From Flavobacteriales bacterium (GTDB lineage Bacteria; Bacteroidota; Bacteroidia; Flavobacteriales_F; PHOS-HE28): a stretch of DNA of 64,000 nucleotides. The position numbers were made by a program, and so were the translations under genes. The notes beneath the pieces were generated by a model. It was not told where the DNA came from, did no database searches, and saw nothing but the letters and a program-made list of their open reading frames with translations. The stretch covers positions 22,616-86,615 of the forward strand of contig JBBSUV010000012.1 in assembly GCA_038234075.1 (NCBI GenBank), given 5' to 3'. Of the stretch, positions 1 through 54,045 are shown in pieces; the stretch's first letter is position 1; every line of letters begins with the position of its first letter.

Positions 1-480
1 CTCGGTATCGATTACATGCCGAACGACCATTTCTCCGCATTCATCTCGCCCGCCACGGCGAAGTTCACCTTCGTGAACGACCAAGGCCTGGCCGATAAAG
101 GCGCCTTCGGCGTGGATCCCGCCACCTATTCCTACGGTGTGGATACGGTAAAGCTTACCAATGGCGCCAATAGCTTGTTCGAGTTCGGGGGCTACGTGAA
201 GCTGATGTACCAGCACGACCTGGCGAAGAATATCAACTTCCTCACCCGTGCCGACTTCTTCAGCAATTACCTGAAGAACCCGGAGAACATCGTTGTGAAC
301 TGGGAGACCCTCTTCACCTTCAAGGTGAACGACTGGTTCGCCGCCACCCTGAGCACGATGCTGATCTATGACGATAAGACCCAGATCCTGAAGCCTTGGG
401 AGGACACGCCGCTGTTTTATGTCGGCAAGGGCACGCAGTTCAAGGAGGCCATCTCGCTTGGCATCATGCTGAAGATCTGA
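1..480 (+). CDS. DUF3078-family outer-membrane beta-barrel-like protein, 3' part (5' end outside the window)
   Basis: Frame is open from base 1. Motifs FFSNYLKNPENIVVNWE and QFKEAISLG are typical of Bacteroidota DUF3078. Confidence 0.7.
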   Translation, partial: LGIDYMPNDHFSAFISPATAKFTFVNDQGLADKGAFGVDPATYSYGVDTVKLTNGANSLFEFGGYVKLMYQHDLAKNINFLTRADFFSNYLKNPENIVVNWETLFTFKVNDWFAATLSTMLIYDDKTQILKPWEDTPLFYVGKGTQFKEAISLGIMLKI

Positions 481-498
481 TCATTGGCTCCATTTTGG

Positions 499-537
499 AA
501 AGCCCGCACCGAAGCATTCGGGGCGGGCTTTCTTTTT
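499..537 (+). terminator. Rho-independent terminator
   Basis: AAAGCCCGC-N-GCGGGCTTT stem followed by CTTTTT, just after the stop at 480. Confidence 0.8.
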
Positions 538-556
538 GACAGATGCTTCTCTGGAG

Positions 557-889
557 CCTCATTTGCATGGCCATGCAAATGAGGATGGCCTTGCATGCGC
601 GATTTGTGCTGTGGGAGCGCCGGCATTCAATGGTAGATCAGGAGCTCCGCGGGCTAGACAAGGTCAGGTCAGCCTCAGCCTACACTAAGTTTCGAGGTTA
701 AATGTGAAATTGACGATTGCATGGCCATGCAAATGAGAGTCGCCCTGCACACGGGAGTGGTGTTGTTATAATGCGGACTTTTCAATGGCGAAGCAAGATC
801 TCTACACGTTTGACGAGCTGATGTCAGCCTGAGCTTTCGCGGAGCTTCGAGGTCAATTGTTAAATCGACGTTTGCATGGCCATGCAAAT
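557..889. repeat. Tandem array of three palindromes (TTGCATGG|CCATGCAA) at 154/155-bp spacing, with homologous intervening units
   Basis: Palindrome centres at 570/571, 724/725 and 879/880. Copy 1 is a perfect 28-bp palindrome (557-584). Units 581-734 and 735-889 share TTCAATGG, GTCAGCCT and TTCGAGGT blocks. Confidence 0.9.
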
Positions 890-954
890 GGGTATGGCCC
901 ATTGAAGGTCGTCGGGCCGAAACTGGATCACTTGTCTCCTGAACACCAAGTCTA

Positions 955-1386
955 TCACTTGGTGCGCAGTATCCCGTCAGCAAGTGCAGCTTGTTCGGCA
1001 AGTGATCTAGCCTCCCCTTCGCCCAGTAGAAGTGAATATGCAATACGAAGCTTTTCCCAAGCGCTGGTCGCCTCGGCAGCCTTTCGTGTGCCTTCGATCG
1101 TGAGGAAGACCTCGACAACACGGTCCTGGCCATTACGAACGATCAGGCTTTCCATTGCGAGCTTATCCAGTGTGCGAGAGATCGTGGAGGCATCCAACTG
1201 GTGAACGTATGCAAGGTCCGTGACATTAATGCCAGGAGCTTCTCTGGCCGTCATGAGGATAAATCCCATGGTGGGCGTGATCTCGATGTGACGAAAGTGT
1301 GCTTCCGCCATGCGGGTAAGTGATCTTCCCAAGGCGGCCCCGGCATGATAGAGGCAAGAGTTGTAGCGGCTTTGGAGATCAGACAT
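955..1386 (-). CDS. MarR-family transcriptional regulator
   Basis: 143 aa with a wHTH (LDASTISRTLDKL...GQDRVVEVFLTIEG). Confidence 0.85.
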   Translation of the reverse strand: MSDLQSRYNSCLYHAGAALGRSLTRMAEAHFRHIEITPTMGFILMTAREAPGINVTDLAYVHQLDASTISRTLDKLAMESLIVRNGQDRVVEVFLTIEGTRKAAEATSAWEKLRIAYSLLLGEGEARSLAEQAALADGILRTK

Positions 1387-1402
1387 GGTAGATGCAAGGT
1401 AA

Positions 1403-1424
1403 CATTTGCATGGCCATGCAAATG
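1403..1424. promoter_or_regulatory. Candidate MarR autoregulatory operator overlapping the promoter
   Basis: 22-bp perfect palindrome CATTTGCATGGCCATGCAAATG, 16 bp upstream of the marR ATG. On the minus strand TTTG-N17-TACCTTGC resembles a Bacteroidota -33/-7 promoter. Confidence 0.7.
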
Positions 1425-1470
1425 AGCCATCAGTAACTGAGCCGACGGTCTTCGACTTGAGCTGAAAAGT

Positions 1471-3465
1471 TCAAGGAAACCTCAGCGGCCCCTTCAACGG
1501 CTGGAACAGGCCATAGAGCCAAGGGTTCCCTTCGCGCACGTGGACCTCTATCGAGGCCACGCGTGCGGTCTTCCCGCCGGGGTTCCAGAGATAGATTTTC
1601 AACCGTGCGCCTTGCCCATGCTGAGGGAGGTCCGATAGCGGGGTGGACGTAAAGAGCGCGGAGCGACCAAGGGCAGGCCCATCGCCACTGGTGCGATAGA
1701 ATATGGAGCGGTCGCCTTCCTTCAGTTCCATCACCAGCTTCAGTTCACTTCCGGCTGCGGCGTTAAGCACCTCCATGCGGGCTTCCAGGATGTCGTTATC
1801 GCCCGAGGAAAGATCGAAGACCGAGCGCTCGAAAACAGCGCCGAACTCACGACCTGCAAGATCCCAGACTTTCGGAGCCATGCCGTATTTGCCCGTGGTA
1901 TCCCGTGATGAAGGCAGGTCCGCGTCCACGTTCCATCCTTCACCTTTCAGCGCTTCCGGTGTCACCATGCTGCGGTGTGAGAGGTCCTCTAGGTTTCCGT
2001 TGTTGGGCATGCCGGAGAACAAAAAGGCTTGACCCTCCTCCATATCGTGCCGTTCCACCATGAAGGGGAACGCCTGTTGGATGCGCTCGAGGTTTTCAGC
2101 AGTGGCACCGGAGGAGATCCCATAGAATACCTCGGCAGCGGACGTGGTGCTCAATAGGCTGTCCACGAAATGCGATGACCGTGAGCGCAGGTTGATGTAA
2201 GGTGCGGAGGTACTGTCGATGCCCCATTGCTTGAAGTAGAACCCCGGGATCTCCTCCGGTAGGTCCACCAGCGCCAACCGGTCGGGGACCTTGGAAGCCT
2301 CGACGATACCGTGGACGGCAACCTCGTATTTCGAGCGGTAGAAGATCTCGTAATGTTTCCGCTGCTCTACGAGTCCGAAAACGGCCGTGGCTGCGATCAG
2401 CGCTACCAGCGGGAACAGCAGCGGCGGACGCGGTGAACGCCAACCCGCGAACAAGGGAAAGACCAAGAAGGGGAAGGAGAAGATCACCACGGAATACTGA
2501 AGCACCGGCGCATGCCAGACCGAATAGCCGTATCCAACGGCCAAAGGCACCAGAGCAAGTATGAGGCATAGCAGGATGAAAGGGGAGGCTCCTTCGTCTT
2601 TGGAGCGGAATGCACGCGTCCAACCCAGAAGCGCCACGCCGAGCACCACCACCGCAAGCGGGATGCTGAACTGGAAGATCCAAGCGACATATTCCGGTAG
2701 CCAAATGGTTGTCGGCGGTGCCAGCCATTGGCCAACTCCGCCATAGCCGAATTGCCGCCACGTGATGGGCAGTTCCGGCAGGTAGAGCAACAGTGCCAAG
2801 CCACCGGCCAGCAGCACGCGTTTCCGTTCCACCGGCGGAGCCAGGAACAGCAGGCACAGCCCGGCCAGCAGCGCGAAGAGCAAGGTGAAATGATGCACAT
2901 AGGCACACAAGGCCGCAGCCAATGCGAGACCGGTCCATGCCCATTTCCGGCCGCCCAAGGCGCGTGTGATCTGATCCATCAACAGGGCGCAGGTGAAGAA
3001 ACCCGCCGCATAGGGCCGTGCGATCTGGGCATACATCACCGTGTATTGCACCGTGCCGATGAAGGCGATCGAAAGCAGTGCAGCTGCAGGTGAGGTCCAT
3101 GCTGCTGCAAAGCGGTACAAAAAGAACAGTGCCGCGATGCCCATTGCGATGAAGGGCAGCTTCACCGCTAACTCACTCGTGCCGAACAGACCGGTCCAGA
3201 TCCACTCGAACACCTGCACGCCCGAAGGATGCGCATCGATGGCCACGCCCTTCGCGATCAGCTCACTGAACGAACTGAAGCGCACGCGCAACAACGCGCT
3301 GATCTCGTCATGGGTGAAGGGAATGTGCGGCAGGTTCCACGAACGCAGTACGGTAGCCAACAGCAGCAGCGCCAACAAAGCCCAACGTTGTGCGGGATCA
3401 CCGGGAATGCCGACCGTGGCCGCCTCTTCCAGCCGCTTGCGCCAGTGCGGTTGCTCAGCTGCCAC
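1471..3465 (-). CDS. GT39/ArnT-PMT-like membrane glycosyltransferase
   Basis: THDEISA motif, multiple TM helices, AQIARPYA motif and a soluble C-terminal domain. Confidence 0.7.
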   Translation of the reverse strand: MAAEQPHWRKRLEEAATVGIPGDPAQRWALLALLLLATVLRSWNLPHIPFTHDEISALLRVRFSSFSELIAKGVAIDAHPSGVQVFEWIWTGLFGTSELAVKLPFIAMGIAALFFLYRFAAAWTSPAAALLSIAFIGTVQYTVMYAQIARPYAAGFFTCALLMDQITRALGGRKWAWTGLALAAALCAYVHHFTLLFALLAGLCLLFLAPPVERKRVLLAGGLALLLYLPELPITWRQFGYGGVGQWLAPPTTIWLPEYVAWIFQFSIPLAVVVLGVALLGWTRAFRSKDEGASPFILLCLILALVPLAVGYGYSVWHAPVLQYSVVIFSFPFLVFPLFAGWRSPRPPLLFPLVALIAATAVFGLVEQRKHYEIFYRSKYEVAVHGIVEASKVPDRLALVDLPEEIPGFYFKQWGIDSTSAPYINLRSRSSHFVDSLLSTTSAAEVFYGISSGATAENLERIQQAFPFMVERHDMEEGQAFLFSGMPNNGNLEDLSHRSMVTPEALKGEGWNVDADLPSSRDTTGKYGMAPKVWDLAGREFGAVFERSVFDLSSGDNDILEARMEVLNAAAGSELKLVMELKEGDRSIFYRTSGDGPALGRSALFTSTPLSDLPQHGQGARLKIYLWNPGGKTARVASIEVHVREGNPWLYGLFQPLKGPLRFP

Positions 3466-3904
3466 GTTCCAGGTCGCGTTTGATGTCCTTTTCCTTCAAG
3501 CTATCGCGCTTGTCGTAGGTCTTCTTGCCCTTGGCCAGCGCGATATCCACCTTCACGATGCCGTTCTTGGCGAAGAACGATCGTATGGGAACGATCGTGA
3601 CCCCTTGGTCCTTCAGCTTGCGCTGCAGCTTCTTCAGCTCTGTGCGGTGCAGCAGCAGTTTGCGATCGCGGATAGGCTCGTGGGCAAAGTTCTTCGCCTT
3701 CTCGAACGGCTGTATGCGCATGTTGCGCAGGTATAGCTCGTCGCCGATGAAGGTGCAGAAGGCCTCGGTGATGCTGGCGTCGCCGAGGCGCAGACTCTTC
3801 ACCTCACTGCCCACGAGCATGATGCCGCATTCGTGCGTTTCGAGGAAAAAGTACTCGAACGCCGCACGGCGGTTCTTGATCTCGGGCATCACTGGAGCGG
3901 CCAT
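3455..3904 (-). CDS. smpB: SsrA-binding protein
   Basis: IKNRRAAFEY, GIMLVGSEVKSLR and KGKKTYDKRD motifs. Start taken at the ATG at 3904. Confidence 0.97.
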   Translation of the reverse strand: MAAPVMPEIKNRRAAFEYFFLETHECGIMLVGSEVKSLRLGDASITEAFCTFIGDELYLRNMRIQPFEKAKNFAHEPIRDRKLLLHRTELKKLQRKLKDQGVTIVPIRSFFAKNGIVKVDIALAKGKKTYDKRDSLKEKDIKRDLERGS

Positions 3905-3953
3905 GGCGCGAAGATGGGGACTGGAAGCCGCAAATGGCTGGATTGCCGATGAG

Positions 3954-4814
3954 CTATTGCGTTTCACCGCCTTGCTGAGCATCCACCCAAGCGATCCCCT
4001 GCTCCTCGATGCGCACCTTGCGCTCCTTGTACAGTGCTCCGAGCGCTTTCTTGAAAGCCTTCTTGCTCATGCCGAGCGCCCGGTAGACCTCCTCCGGCGA
4101 GCTCTTGTCCGTCAACGGAAAGAAACCCTCGTGCTGCTTGATCCGCTTGGCCAGGAGGGCGGTGTTGGCATCGTTGAAGTGCTCGTATCCGATAGCCTGG
4201 AGCGCGATGTCCAGCTTGTTGTCGGGGCGCACGGCCTTCACGAAGCCGGTGATGCGGTCACCGACGGAGATCGGCTTGAAGACCTCGTTGGCATGGATGA
4301 GGCCTTGGTGCTTATTGTTCACGATCACAGACCAGCCCATCTCGCTGCGCCCGAAGACCAGGAGTTTGACCTCATCGCCTTCCGCGACGGTAAGTTCCGC
4401 ATTCCCCAAGTGCTTATCGATGCGGGTGCTTCCATAAAGCCGGTCCGTATGCTCGTCCAGCGCTAAATAGGTCACATACCAGCGGCCTTCCTCCAATTTC
4501 CGCTGTTGTTCCTTGAAGGGCACCAAGAGGTCCTTCTCCATGCCCCAGTCCATGAAGGCGCCTAAGCGATCCACGGCATTCACGCGCAGGCTGGCGAAAC
4601 CGTTCAATTCGATCTTCGGCTCCAGCGAGGTGGCTACCTGCCGGTCCTCGGAATCGCGGTACACGAAAACGTTGAGCACGGCTCCTTGGTCGTGCTCGAT
4701 CGGTACGTACTTGTTCGGCAGCAGCACCTCGTTCCCATCATCATCTCCCAGGAAAAGCCCTACGCTGGTGTTGCGCAGGATGACGAGGTCCTGGGTCTGG
4801 CCGGTGTGTATCAT
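3954..4814 (-). CDS. cvfB: CvfB-family S1 RNA-binding protein
   Basis: EVLLPNKYVP, GAFMDWGMEKDLLVP and C-terminal wHTH MSKKAFKKALGALYK. Confidence 0.9.
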   Translation of the reverse strand: MIHTGQTQDLVILRNTSVGLFLGDDDGNEVLLPNKYVPIEHDQGAVLNVFVYRDSEDRQVATSLEPKIELNGFASLRVNAVDRLGAFMDWGMEKDLLVPFKEQQRKLEEGRWYVTYLALDEHTDRLYGSTRIDKHLGNAELTVAEGDEVKLLVFGRSEMGWSVIVNNKHQGLIHANEVFKPISVGDRITGFVKAVRPDNKLDIALQAIGYEHFNDANTALLAKRIKQHEGFFPLTDKSSPEEVYRALGMSKKAFKKALGALYKERKVRIEEQGIAWVDAQQGGETQ

Positions 4815-18810: not shown

Positions 18811-19092
18811 TTAGATCTTCTCCAGGATCAAGGTCTTCATCCGGGTCACCTCCGCCTTGGTGAAGCCATGCGCTCGGATGTTCCCTTCGCCGGTGGTGTT
18901 GATGATGATGGTGGAGTAACCCACCAGCGGACAGTCGATGTCCACGGAAGAGATCCGCGTGAAAGGGATCGTCTTCTCATTACCGCTGAAGAGGCTGGGC
19001 ACTTGCAGGGTGACCCCTTGTTGGTCGATGATGACCTTCGAGGGAAAGACGCGGTTGCCTTCCGCGAGACGTGCAGCGATGAATGTTTCCAT
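18811..19092 (-). CDS. Bacterial PH-domain protein
   Basis: 93 aa, GNRVFPSKVIID...EKTIPFTRISSVDI pattern. Confidence 0.7.
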   Translation of the reverse strand: METFIAARLAEGNRVFPSKVIIDQQGVTLQVPSLFSGNEKTIPFTRISSVDIDCPLVGYSTIIINTTGEGNIRAHGFTKAEVTRMKTLILEKI

Positions 19093-39176: not shown

Positions 39177-39260
39177 ACCGGAGTGGCGGAATTGGTAGAC
39201 GCGCACGTTTCAGGGGCGTGTGACCGTAAGGTCGTAAGGGTTCGAGTCCCTTCTTCGGTA
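39177..39260 (+). tRNA. trnL: tRNA-Leu(CAG)
   Basis: Acceptor ACCGGAG/CTTCGGT, D-loop TGGTA, anticodon arm CACGT-TTCAGGG-GCGTG, long variable arm and GGTTCGAGTCC. CCA is not encoded. TATATTTG box at 39141-39148. Confidence 0.95.
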
Positions 39261-39391
39261 CTGACAGAGCGGCGCGAGCCGCTTTGTTCGTTCTCAGGGT
39301 TTGCCGAAGCCTCATGTCGATCTTGGTCGCAGCCTCGTTTCCTTCAGCAACCGTTCGCGCCATCGTTCGCGGCTACCTTTGATCGGACCAG

Positions 39392-53636: not shown

Positions 53637-53757
53637 TGCAGGATCGGCGGAAGGCGTTATCTGCGTCCATCTGTGTCATCTGCGGTTTTTCCCTTCTCAG
53701 CGGAAGAAAGCCATCCATGCCGCAAAGCACATCCGCGGATCCTGCTACCTTCGCCGC

Positions 53758-53927
53758 GCTGATGATCCCCGTCTTAACAAGCGGGGTTAAAAGGGAATCA
53801 GGTGCGATACCTGAGCTTTTCCTGAAGCTGTAAGCCTGAATGCCGAACCGGCAATAAGCCACTGTCAACCGCAAGGAAGATGGGAAGGCGCCGGAGAGGA
53901 AGGCGAGCCAGAAGACCTGTCACTAGC
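53758..53927 (+). ncRNA. Cobalamin (AdoCbl) riboswitch
   Basis: AAAAGGGAA-TCAGGTG..A..CCTGA, CTGTAA, GCCACTG, GGGAAG and B12 box GAGCCAGAAGACCTG. TACCTTCG promoter at 53746. A terminator-like hairpin lies at about 53942-54018. Confidence 0.92.
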
Positions 53928-54045
53928 ACAATGGATGATCGCTTCCAGGAAAGAGGCGTGCTCCTGTGCCCTCGGTCCGCGTCGGCATGTAAGCACGGTT
54001 ATTCCTGGAGGTTCTTTAGAACGAAACCTCAACAAGGAATAATCA

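Follow-up and report, generated by a model that had tools for sequence, protein, structure and literature searches.

A palindrome repeated around marR and in dispersed intergenic arrays of Flavobacteriales as a probable MarR operator

A 64-kb stretch of DNA from an uncultured Flavobacteriales bacterium (here called the window, meaning the whole stretch that was analyzed) contains marR, a gene for a MarR-family repressor, together with four exact copies of a 16-bp palindrome, TTGCATGGCCATGCAA, which consists of the halves TTGCATGG and CCATGCAA and has the half-site TGCATG. Copy 4 is situated at the marR promoter, and copies 1 to 3 are situated 3' of the gene. The placement of copy 4 on the promoter, the bracketing of marR by palindromes in three gene neighborhoods, and the change of the palindrome center together with the MarR lineage make it very probable that the palindrome is the operator of this MarR, as had been proposed in the original prediction, a reading of the DNA by itself, and that copy 4 is autoregulatory. 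A fuller explanation, according to which the downstream copies are auxiliary sites and MarR occupies palindrome arrays throughout the genome, appears reasonably likely and is the one that we favor.

Palindrome copies at marR and its relatives

When the whole 64-kb window was searched, the only further match to TTGCATGGCCATGCAA with three or fewer mismatches was a chance-level site at 19087 with three mismatches. Dinucleotide-preserving shuffles gave a mean of 0.62 matches at this threshold, and none of 100 shuffles gave five. The four copies constituted four of the seven loop-less perfect palindromes of at least 14 bp in the 64 kb (Table 1). The original prediction had listed four copies, none elsewhere in the window, intervals of 154 and 155 bp among the three downstream copies, and a gap of about 470 bp with no credible open reading frame (ORF). 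The motif search matched the predicted centers exactly and found nothing elsewhere beyond the site at 19087, the same two intervals were measured, and the gap, which extended over 474 bp between the stop at 480 and the marR stop at 955, indeed contained no credible ORF.

Just past copy 4 in the direction of marR transcription is TACCTTGC, a box resembling TAnnTTTG, the Bacteroidetes -7 consensus, and the left half of the palindrome falls at the expected position of the -33 TTG element. Overlap of copy 4 with a -33/-7-like promoter, as first predicted, was therefore upheld; the accompanying distance of 16 nt to the marR ATG applies only to the 22-bp palindrome, the corresponding distance for the 16-mer core being 19 nt. 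The 7 nt between the box and the ATG imply a leaderless or very short-leader mRNA. Among 274 palindrome flanks from all clade loci, 12 had a TA..TT box at +4, and 11 of these 12 belonged to marR-upstream copies; a strict form of the box had seven matches in total, and all five at the +4 offset were in marR-upstream copies. The order palindrome, 4 nt, TA..TT box, and ATG was found at 11 marR loci and at one place elsewhere in this set. Furthermore, the TACCTTGC box was kept in all six orthologues from the same gene neighborhood (group A, below), including two that had no upstream palindrome, and the box-to-ATG gap in the family was 4 to 8 nt, or up to about 30 nt in one group. Copy 4 is thus placed as an autoregulatory operator would be, on the core promoter of its own gene and at a conserved position. 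A TAnnTT(T/G)(G/C) box 4 to 8 nt before the ATG was observed in several genes of the clade, namely, marR (window 1387-1401, L021, L131 to L134, and L143) and a thrE-like gene (L014 and L148), which suggests that leaderless mRNAs are widespread in the clade.

Fifteen loci encoding members of this MarR subfamily, with identities of 50 to 98%, were compared and represented three gene neighborhoods. The upstream copy was present in 13 of the 15 loci; at least one downstream copy (one to eight) was present in 14, as was the first downstream copy, the orthologue of copy 3. The upstream copy and the first downstream copy were 479 to 555 bp apart in all loci. In group A (PMT_2, marR, and convergent DUF3078), the upstream copy was accompanied by three downstream copies in the window, L021, and L131, by two in L143, and by eight, with 99-bp spacing, in L132; L133 (which is L010) and L134 (which is L115) had two downstream copies and no upstream copy. 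Wherever the upstream copy was present in group A, it was at the identical place, and the multiplicity of downstream copies that had first drawn attention in the window was kept at the orthologous loci (two to eight). Group B (rpsP, marR, and co-directional DUF4421) comprised L135, L136, L139, L140, L142, and L091; its upstream copy often had one to three mismatches and was followed after 4 nt by TAGATTCA or TATATTCA, and its zero to three downstream copies lay directly before the DUF4421 start or overlapped it. The statement in the original prediction that no obvious target gene adjoins the copies holds for the window; in group B, the co-directional DUF4421 gene that directly follows them is a candidate target. 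Group C (marR and convergent CarbopepD_reg_2; L137/L138 and L141) had the variant palindrome ATGCATG-TA-CATGCAT, with one copy on each side of marR, and the downstream copy was a 26-bp perfect palindrome.

Group A and most of group B had GC at the palindrome center, in place of which L139, L137/L138, and L141 had TA, and the center variant was identical on both sides of any given marR. Distant homologues thus had the form TGCATG-TA-CATGCA both upstream and downstream of the gene. The half-site TGCATG was constant, and the recognition helix of the proteins, D-x-S/T-T-x-S/T-R-x-x-D-K, was conserved, with D65, T68, R71, D74, and K75 invariant and S67, I69, and S70 nearly invariant. No gene other than marR was consistently found beside the palindromes.

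By sequence match and predicted fold, the marR product is a genuine member of the MarR family. It matched the Pfam family MarR with 35.4 bits, against a cutoff of 24.6. The AlphaFold2 model (pLDDT 87) had helices at residues 2-32, 38-49, 55-61, 66-78, 97-120, and 125-142 and a wing at 82-95, following the MarR topology a1-a2-b1-a3-a4(recognition)-b2-b3(wing)-a5-a6 with N- and C-terminal dimerization helices. The top 50 Foldseek matches in the PDB were all MarR-family structures, including the DNA-bound MepR, AbfR, and MftR. The 32 homologue clusters matched PF01047 or PF12802, and every source name given was Flavobacteriales or a MarR-family name. The product had no close characterized relative: identity to characterized MarR proteins was about 20%, the best PDB sequence match had E = 4.5e-4, and all NCBIfam equivalogs scored far below their cutoffs.

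Two further features of the marR loci were observed. In L137 (84-120) and L141 (139-175), the annotated start of P0032 (117 aa) seems too late; an in-frame ATG 4 nt past a perfect TAGTTTTG box restores the family N terminus MTDLQS.FNDCLFHAS..., giving a protein of about 143 aa whose mRNA is probably leaderless. In ACE_NR_BACT18 (L132, 2751-2966), the marR promoter and first codons were present as a tandem duplication of about 215 bp, in which the upstream duplicate contained a degenerate palindrome, TTACATGACCATGCAA, a TTCCTTGC box, and a fragment consisting of the ATG and the first codons, with an extra perfect palindrome at 2893.

Downstream repeat units and dispersed arrays

Copies 1 to 3 were found by a repeat search to be parts of a degenerate tandem repeat (Table 1). 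Positions 626-745 and 781-900 were 73% identical, and positions 563-612 and 717-766 were 80% identical; over the whole units, 108 of 155 positions were shared (70%), with about 66% identity outside the cores in a MAFFT alignment. Tandem Repeats Finder scored nothing in 400-1600, the repeat of about 155 bp being too degenerate. The even spacing of the three copies arises because a unit of about 155 bp, consisting of palindrome and spacer, was tandemly duplicated; it is better described as a by-product of this duplication than as a designed interval. Spacings in orthologues ranged from 99 to 165 bp. In L143, a metagenomic close relative (MarR 92% and DNA 82% identical), the same locus had one unit fewer. 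Being palindromes, the copies double as direct repeats of one another and would be a substrate for slippage or unequal exchange. All 48 core positions in the window were intact, next to spacers that were about 66% identical, and the survival of intact cores beside diverged spacers would hardly be expected unless selection or gene conversion had acted; it points to purifying selection on the cores.

A motif scan covered one genome per species, and the array counts for individual metagenome-assembled genomes (MAGs) are those among the matches listed. Multi-copy arrays (two to eight copies) occurred, among these matches, in a clade of high-GC (56 to 63%) Flavobacteriales MAGs: at least ten array loci in MAG_AAO_H125.21; at least five in MAG_25; at least four each in ACE_BAC32 and Cryomorpha ignava T2.bin.84; at least two each in BAC5, LejiaF_58_12, and ACE_NR_BACT18, one of the last being an array of eight copies about 100 bp apart; and at least one in Hirt_18. 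In addition, among close relatives of the window organism, the metagenomic locus L148, from the same sample as L143, had two copies between rplI and a ThrE-family gene, and the metagenomic locus L147 had three copies 101 bp apart. In many phyla, the matches listed were single and at chance level, and viral contigs contained one lone match, also at chance level. The possibility, raised at the outset, of a dispersed genome-wide repeat unrelated to marR was accordingly borne out as to dispersal, with at least ten loci in one MAG, and not as to a lack of relation to marR.

The arrays occupied convergent, tandem, and divergent intergenic gaps. Convergent gaps included the marR locus, murI/gamma-carbonic anhydrase (gamma-CA)-like, gcvP/ABC transporter, GT1/mazG, and, from translations only, a partial membrane-protein ORF read as a proton pyrophosphatase opposite an ORF read as a deoxynucleoside kinase. 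Tandem gaps were those from rplI to the thrE-like gene and from ksgA to mgtE, and divergent gaps were those between AraC-HMA/copper ATPase and M28 peptidase genes and between BamD and kbl. Most names of flanking genes come from reading of translations, and ten proteins were scanned against Pfam. Arrays persisted at orthologous positions with intact cores and unalignable spacers at the marR locus and, in four genomes, at the rplI locus; L016 and L017, being about 95% similar, were uninformative.

Several array loci had features of their own. The order rplI, canonical terminator, palindrome array, TAGCTTTC box, 6 nt, ATG of the ThrE-family gene, and acnA was observed in four genomes (L014 1012-1492, L034, L099, and L148 5919-6229), and the last palindrome was 37 to 66 nt upstream of the TAGCTTTC box. 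A four-copy array (166/101/166 bp) in L016 (5988-6436) and L017 (1291-1740) was located between a divergent AraC-HTH/HMA regulator plus copper P-type ATPase and an M28 peptidase, and an HMA-domain gene was one gene away from the array in L020; a link between arrays and metals through these HMA-domain neighbors is possible. In MAG_AAO_H125.21, the loci L036, L040, L047, L054, L073, L091, L092, L114, and L127 each had a perfect copy and a center variant, TTGCATGGCAATGCAA, at a distance of 173 to 176 bp, or of 123 to 125 or 235 bp, with ATTGAC..N7..AAATTCC ahead of the variant copy. The order after marR in L091 and L140 was also variant first and perfect second, and for the MAG_AAO pairs either orientation relative to the genes suits the majority of loci.

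Searches of the arrays for transcriptional or coding signatures were negative. TAnnTTTG was absent from both strands of 33 arrays (8460 nt), against an expectation of 3.5 +/- 1.9, and a sigma-70 scan of 400-1600 found nothing. Rfam gave no relevant match at E values up to 10 in positions 1-4000, nor at the gathering threshold in the whole window. A terminator scan of 400-1600 found none: an intrinsic terminator has a GC-rich hairpin with a loop of 3 to 8 nt and at least five U residues, and the palindromes, followed by at most TTTT or ATTT, do not have this form. A canonical terminator was present separately from the array, after it in group A and before it at the rplI locus. Operators for non-coding transcripts, one of the roles first suggested for the downstream copies, are disfavored, there being no -7 box by array copies, no conservation of spacers, and no match in Rfam. 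Other readings were also rejected. A strong RNA fold of the region (z-scores of -4.6 and -5.5) was discarded as an artefact because identical palindromes pair among themselves; a coding function was rejected because ORFs beginning at the ATG within the palindrome ended after 44, 16, and 9 codons in three units; and a CRISPR array was rejected, the spacers being 85 to 160 bp long and mutually homologous, with no cas genes among the neighbors. A full-text literature search with the 16-mer or its 12-mer core returned nothing relevant, and nothing applicable was found in the literature on flavobacterial repetitive extragenic palindromic (REP) elements and MarR decoys.

Around marR itself, the synteny of smpB, PMT_2, and marR was retained in L010 and L021, and the position of the terminator between marR and the convergent DUF3078/DUF481 gene was conserved in L021, L010, and L115. 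Since DUF3078/DUF481 and DUF4421 had no similarity, the window neighbor is not an inverted copy of the group B target, and this candidate was dropped.

Table 1. Positions of the palindrome copies, the adjoining elements and genes, and two distant RNA features in the window
Feature	Position	Strand	Basis and remarks
DUF3078/DUF481 outer-membrane-type gene, 3' part	1..480	+	Pfam; convergent with marR
Canonical bidirectional terminator	498..532		GC-rich hairpin with T-runs on both sides; serves DUF3078/DUF481 (+) and marR (-)
Copy 1, CCTCATTTGCATGGCCATGCAAATGAGG	557..584 (core 563-578)		28-bp perfect palindrome; center 570.5; last copy ahead of the terminator
Degenerate tandem repeat	563..887		Repeat search and MAFFT alignment; two units of ~155 bp (563-716, 717-871) and a closing palindrome
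Counterpart of the A/T-rich flank at copy 2, TGTGAAATTGACGA	703-716
Copy 2, bare 16-bp core	717..732		Center 724.5; candidate auxiliary MarR site
A/T-rich flank, TGTTAAATCGACGT	858..871	+	Reads palindrome-ACGTCGATTTAACA on the marR strand; possible short U-run after a hairpin, or bend element
Copy 3	871..888 (core 872-887)		18-bp perfect palindrome; center 879.5; first palindrome 3' of the marR stop (68 nt); candidate auxiliary MarR site
marR	955..1386	-	Pfam PF01047; 143-aa MarR-family winged-helix repressor of a clade-specific subfamily
-7-like box, TACCTTGC	1394..1401	-	TAnnTTTG type; 4 nt past the palindrome and 7 nt ahead of the marR ATG
Copy 4, CATTTGCATGGCCATGCAAATG	1403..1424 (core 1406-1421)		22-bp perfect palindrome; center 1413.5; 50 nt after the PMT_2 stop; covers the marR promoter spacer and -33 region
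PMT_2 (ArnT-like glycosyltransferase) gene	1471..3465	-	Lies 5' of marR, also on the minus strand; smpB precedes it
tRNA-Leu (CAG)	39177-39261	+	Sole tRNA of the window
Cobalamin riboswitch	53746-53938	+	Rfam RF00174, 106 bits

Proposed role of the copies and alternative explanations

In the favored explanation, a dimer of the clade-specific MarR would bind each palindrome. As copy 4 is situated between the -33 element and the TACCTTGC -7-like box, MarR bound there would block RNA polymerase and repress marR. The unit operator-marR-operator would be ancestral and retained throughout the subfamily, and in this lineage the downstream operator would have been tandemly duplicated with its spacer of about 155 bp, the identical palindromes supplying homology for slippage. 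Since the downstream copies have no promoter, ORF, or conserved RNA and their cores are intact, they presumably act as protein-binding DNA. Their most likely role would be cooperative or looped binding of MarR together with copy 4 across the gene (roughly 530 bp); they may also form a roadblock to polymerases leaving or entering the marR 3' region, and they may hold a local reservoir of MarR. The decoy or looping role suggested in the original prediction is possible. The group B copies at the DUF4421 start raise the prospect that the ancestral role was co-repression of a downstream gene, in which case the sites would have been kept and amplified in this lineage once the neighborhood had changed. 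In related genomes, the same operator makes up weakly phased arrays of two to eight copies at many other intergenic loci, so that the sites occupied by this MarR are probably multi-site arrays spread over the genome and not one promoter alone.

Whether the palindrome acts as duplex DNA or as a hairpin bears on all of these roles. Flanks pooled over genomes seemed strongly complementary at positions 1 to 3 beyond the core. With the shuffling of right flanks restricted to each genome, P values were 0.37, 0.16, 0.006, 0.26, and 0.10 for positions 1 to 5, and the summed flank pairing was 200, against 180.6 +/- 7.5 in the shuffles. The flanks were genome specific: the window had CATT...AATG, ACE_BAC32 and MAG_25 had ACGT or ACAG, and MAG_AAO had ATGA or ACGA. 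Most of the complementarity was lost in the within-genome shuffles and so reflects mainly a genome-specific half-site consensus; the pooled covariation, which largely vanishes within genomes, is for this reason unusable as evidence for a hairpin, and of these signals the surplus of long perfect extensions (below) alone persists. A symmetric half-site consensus specific to each genome is what would be predicted for a symmetric protein site. Furthermore, spacings between neighboring copies showed a periodicity of 10.3 bp, close to integral helical turns (R = 0.40; P = 0.013 against a null with +/-6-bp jitter), which points modestly to duplex DNA.

Several findings weigh against the favored explanation. 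The case for binding by MarR consists entirely of adjacency, geometry, and co-variation. None of the array copies among the 274 flanks had a box at +4 or an overlap with a promoter of the marR type; the flanking genes had no common functional theme, which means that the arrays do not define an ordinary regulon; and several arrays (window, L020, L015, L087, and L147) were located in gaps toward which both neighboring genes are transcribed, leaving nothing there to repress. L133 and L134 had no upstream copy and L136 had no downstream copies, so that neither element is indispensable. The helical phasing is modest, and some of the spacings are related by descent and hence only partly independent. 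A MarR protein is a dimer, and bridging of two sites by it is supposition here. In addition, at least five extra perfect stem pairs of non-consensus sequence were found in 13 of 70 copies, against 5.6 +/- 1.8 expected (P < 0.0002), and many copies were followed on one side, after 5 to 6 nt, by a TTTTAACAA tract. This tract was on the strand of the gene ending upstream in 13 of 17 copies (13 versus 4), corresponding to 4 versus 2 independent loci. The long stem extensions and the tract hint at a hairpin or strand-specific aspect and keep alive a reading as REP-like elements.

Palindromes extended 5 to 7 bp beyond the core were seen, for example, at L040 6540, L127 5865, L046 7608, L021 3640, and window 557-584, and several were just past a stop codon; quasi-palindromes tend to be perfected by template switching, and the extended perfect stems could have arisen in this way. 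The one-sided tract occurred at window 703-716 and 858-871 and in L010, L016, L034, L074, L014, L115, L128, L143, and L148. Read on the other strand it is (A)TTGTTAAAA, 5 to 6 nt from the palindrome, or in reverse palindrome-N6-TTTTAACAA(T), which is more specific than a plain U-run; it may represent a weak U-run or an element that bends DNA.

A REP/bacterial interspersed mosaic element (BIME)-like family of extragenic hairpins, self-spread and serving as RNA 3'-end, terminator, or stabilizer elements or as single-stranded DNA targets of a REP-associated tyrosine transposase (RAYT), with an incidental or partial link to marR, is the main rival explanation, if an unlikely one (for a tool to survey REP elements, see PMC12306157). 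The palindromes are extragenic, repeated, and clustered, as REP elements are; they are dispersed, strictly intergenic, and variable in copy number, they occur in convergent gaps and directly past stop codons, and the window copies, lying between the marR stop and the canonical terminator, would be part of the marR 3' untranslated region. The surplus of copies with 5 to 7 additional non-consensus stem pairs and the presence of the TTTTAACAA tract on the strand of the upstream gene (13 of 17 copies) are in its favor; the former is also explicable by template switching, and the latter is reduced to 4 versus 2 when independent loci are counted. The imperfect, looped hairpin with stem compensation that characterizes REP elements was not found: the palindrome is perfect and loop-less, its core either does not vary or has mutations on a single side, with no compensatory pattern, and the flanks that were read, though not scanned for it, had no evident GTAG-type 5' tetranucleotide. 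Most of the flank symmetry disappeared in within-genome shuffles, the terminator scan was empty, with U-runs of just 3 to 4, and a canonical terminator already precedes the array at the rplI locus. No transposase was seen beside arrays among the flanking genes read or scanned, RAYT not having been searched genome-wide. An unrelated hairpin repeat would not be expected to keep a fixed geometry at the marR promoter, to bracket marR in three neighborhoods, or to have the same GC or TA center on both sides of the gene. These last observations also bear on the idea that another DNA-binding protein, perhaps a factor with a global or architectural role, owns the palindrome and controls marR as well, MarR itself binding something else. 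Such a factor would explain why many arrays are far from marR and have neither a functional theme nor promoter geometry, and why two orthologues have no marR-upstream copy; it is nevertheless improbable, given that marR is bracketed in all three synteny groups and is the sole consistently adjacent gene, that the center variant co-segregates with the MarR lineage, and that a 16-bp site whose halves are separated by one turn of the helix suits a MarR dimer, the fold matches of this protein including three DNA-bound relatives.

Tandem genes for small RNAs or micropeptides, each with a MarR-controlled promoter in the manner of the Fur-controlled PrrF1/2 or of LhrC1-5, would fit the tandem units of about 100 to 170 bp with an operator at the start of each, and tandem arrays of regulated small RNAs are known in other bacteria. 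This alternative is very unlikely in view of the missing -7 boxes and TAnnTTTG matches beside array copies, the empty sigma-70 scan, spacers that cannot be aligned between orthologous loci, in-palindrome ORFs of unconserved length, and the failure to find any match in Rfam even at E values up to 10, the low folding energy being an artefact of pairing between palindromes. Least probable are recombination sites, that is, invertible or shufflon-like segments bounded by palindromes: segments of 100 to 175 bp with identical inverted and direct repeats have the size of Bacteroidetes invertons, and the MAG_AAO pairs mostly combine a perfect and a center-variant copy, but no recombinase was found among the adjacent genes, up to eight units with homologous spacers share a single orientation that is the same in orthologues, and the symmetric central GC leaves the sites without polarity.

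A broader form of the favored explanation would be a ligand-responsive MarR whose operator has been amplified into phased arrays at tens of intergenic loci, mostly off promoters, giving a protein-bound repeat family that brackets the gene for its own binder; we advance it tentatively, as a possibility on the doubtful side. MarR regulators are normally local, with one or two operators at one promoter. If the broader form is true, the amplified arrays would serve throughout the genome as roadblocks or insulators between genes that can be switched, as a scaffold of genome architecture, or as a reservoir of decoys setting the level of free MarR, and the family would be a functional analogue, based on a transcription factor, of REP/BIME or centromere-like arrays. 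Occupation of the arrays by MarR would in any case make them natural bacterial examples either of arrays that serve a transcription factor as decoy or reservoir or of roadblocks or insulators that depend on a factor, both of which have been much treated in synthetic and theoretical work and of which, to our knowledge, few natural cases are known. An identical pair of operators can seed tandem amplification, and this bears on the origin of binding-site arrays and of REP-like families. The system is directly testable, consisting of one small protein and one 16-bp site, with the natural GC-to-TA center variant as a specificity control.

Comparison with known systems

Among regulators of its own family, the proposed system resembles MarR autoregulation as known from Escherichia coli MarR at marO sites I and II and from MepR, MexR, and OhrR, in which a homodimeric winged-helix repressor acts at a pseudo-palindromic operator of 16 to 20 bp on its own promoter. 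Known MarR operators are in promoter regions, usually those of a divergent or downstream target operon, whereas here one to eight more copies are found 3' of the gene and arrays are found off promoters. The lac O1/O2/O3, gal OE/OI, and deo systems likewise have extra copies of the same operator tens to hundreds of base pairs away, also downstream; a tendency to near-integral helical spacing is modestly indicated here. Repression in those systems relies on a tetramer or on a factor that bridges, and on two or three operators; here there are tandem arrays and genome-wide dispersal, and bridging by MarR is only proposed.

The REP elements and BIMEs of enterobacteria, which are bound by integration host factor (IHF) and gyrase and mobilized by RAYT, are also clustered extragenic palindromes of variable copy number that occur in convergent gaps and 3' untranslated regions and have a protein partner. 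As in a REPtron, the gene for the presumed partner is flanked by the repeats, but here this gene is marR and not one for a Y1 transposase. In contrast to REP elements, the palindrome here is perfect and loop-less and apparently present in tens rather than hundreds of copies, the linkers of 85 to 160 bp are homologous within an array, and array positions are orthologous across species. The sopC region of the F plasmid, with 12 repeats of 43 bp that each contain a 16-bp inverted repeat bound by SopB, shares the tandem 16-bp palindromes and the adjacent gene for a dimeric binder, binding being predicted in the present case; here the sites are chromosomal, at many loci, and in units of 100 to 175 bp, and no ParA/ParB-type partner was seen. 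Taken with these comparisons, the window and its relatives appear to contain a MarR operator system whose arrays are amplified, dispersed, and located off promoters, an arrangement that is unusual for MarR regulators.

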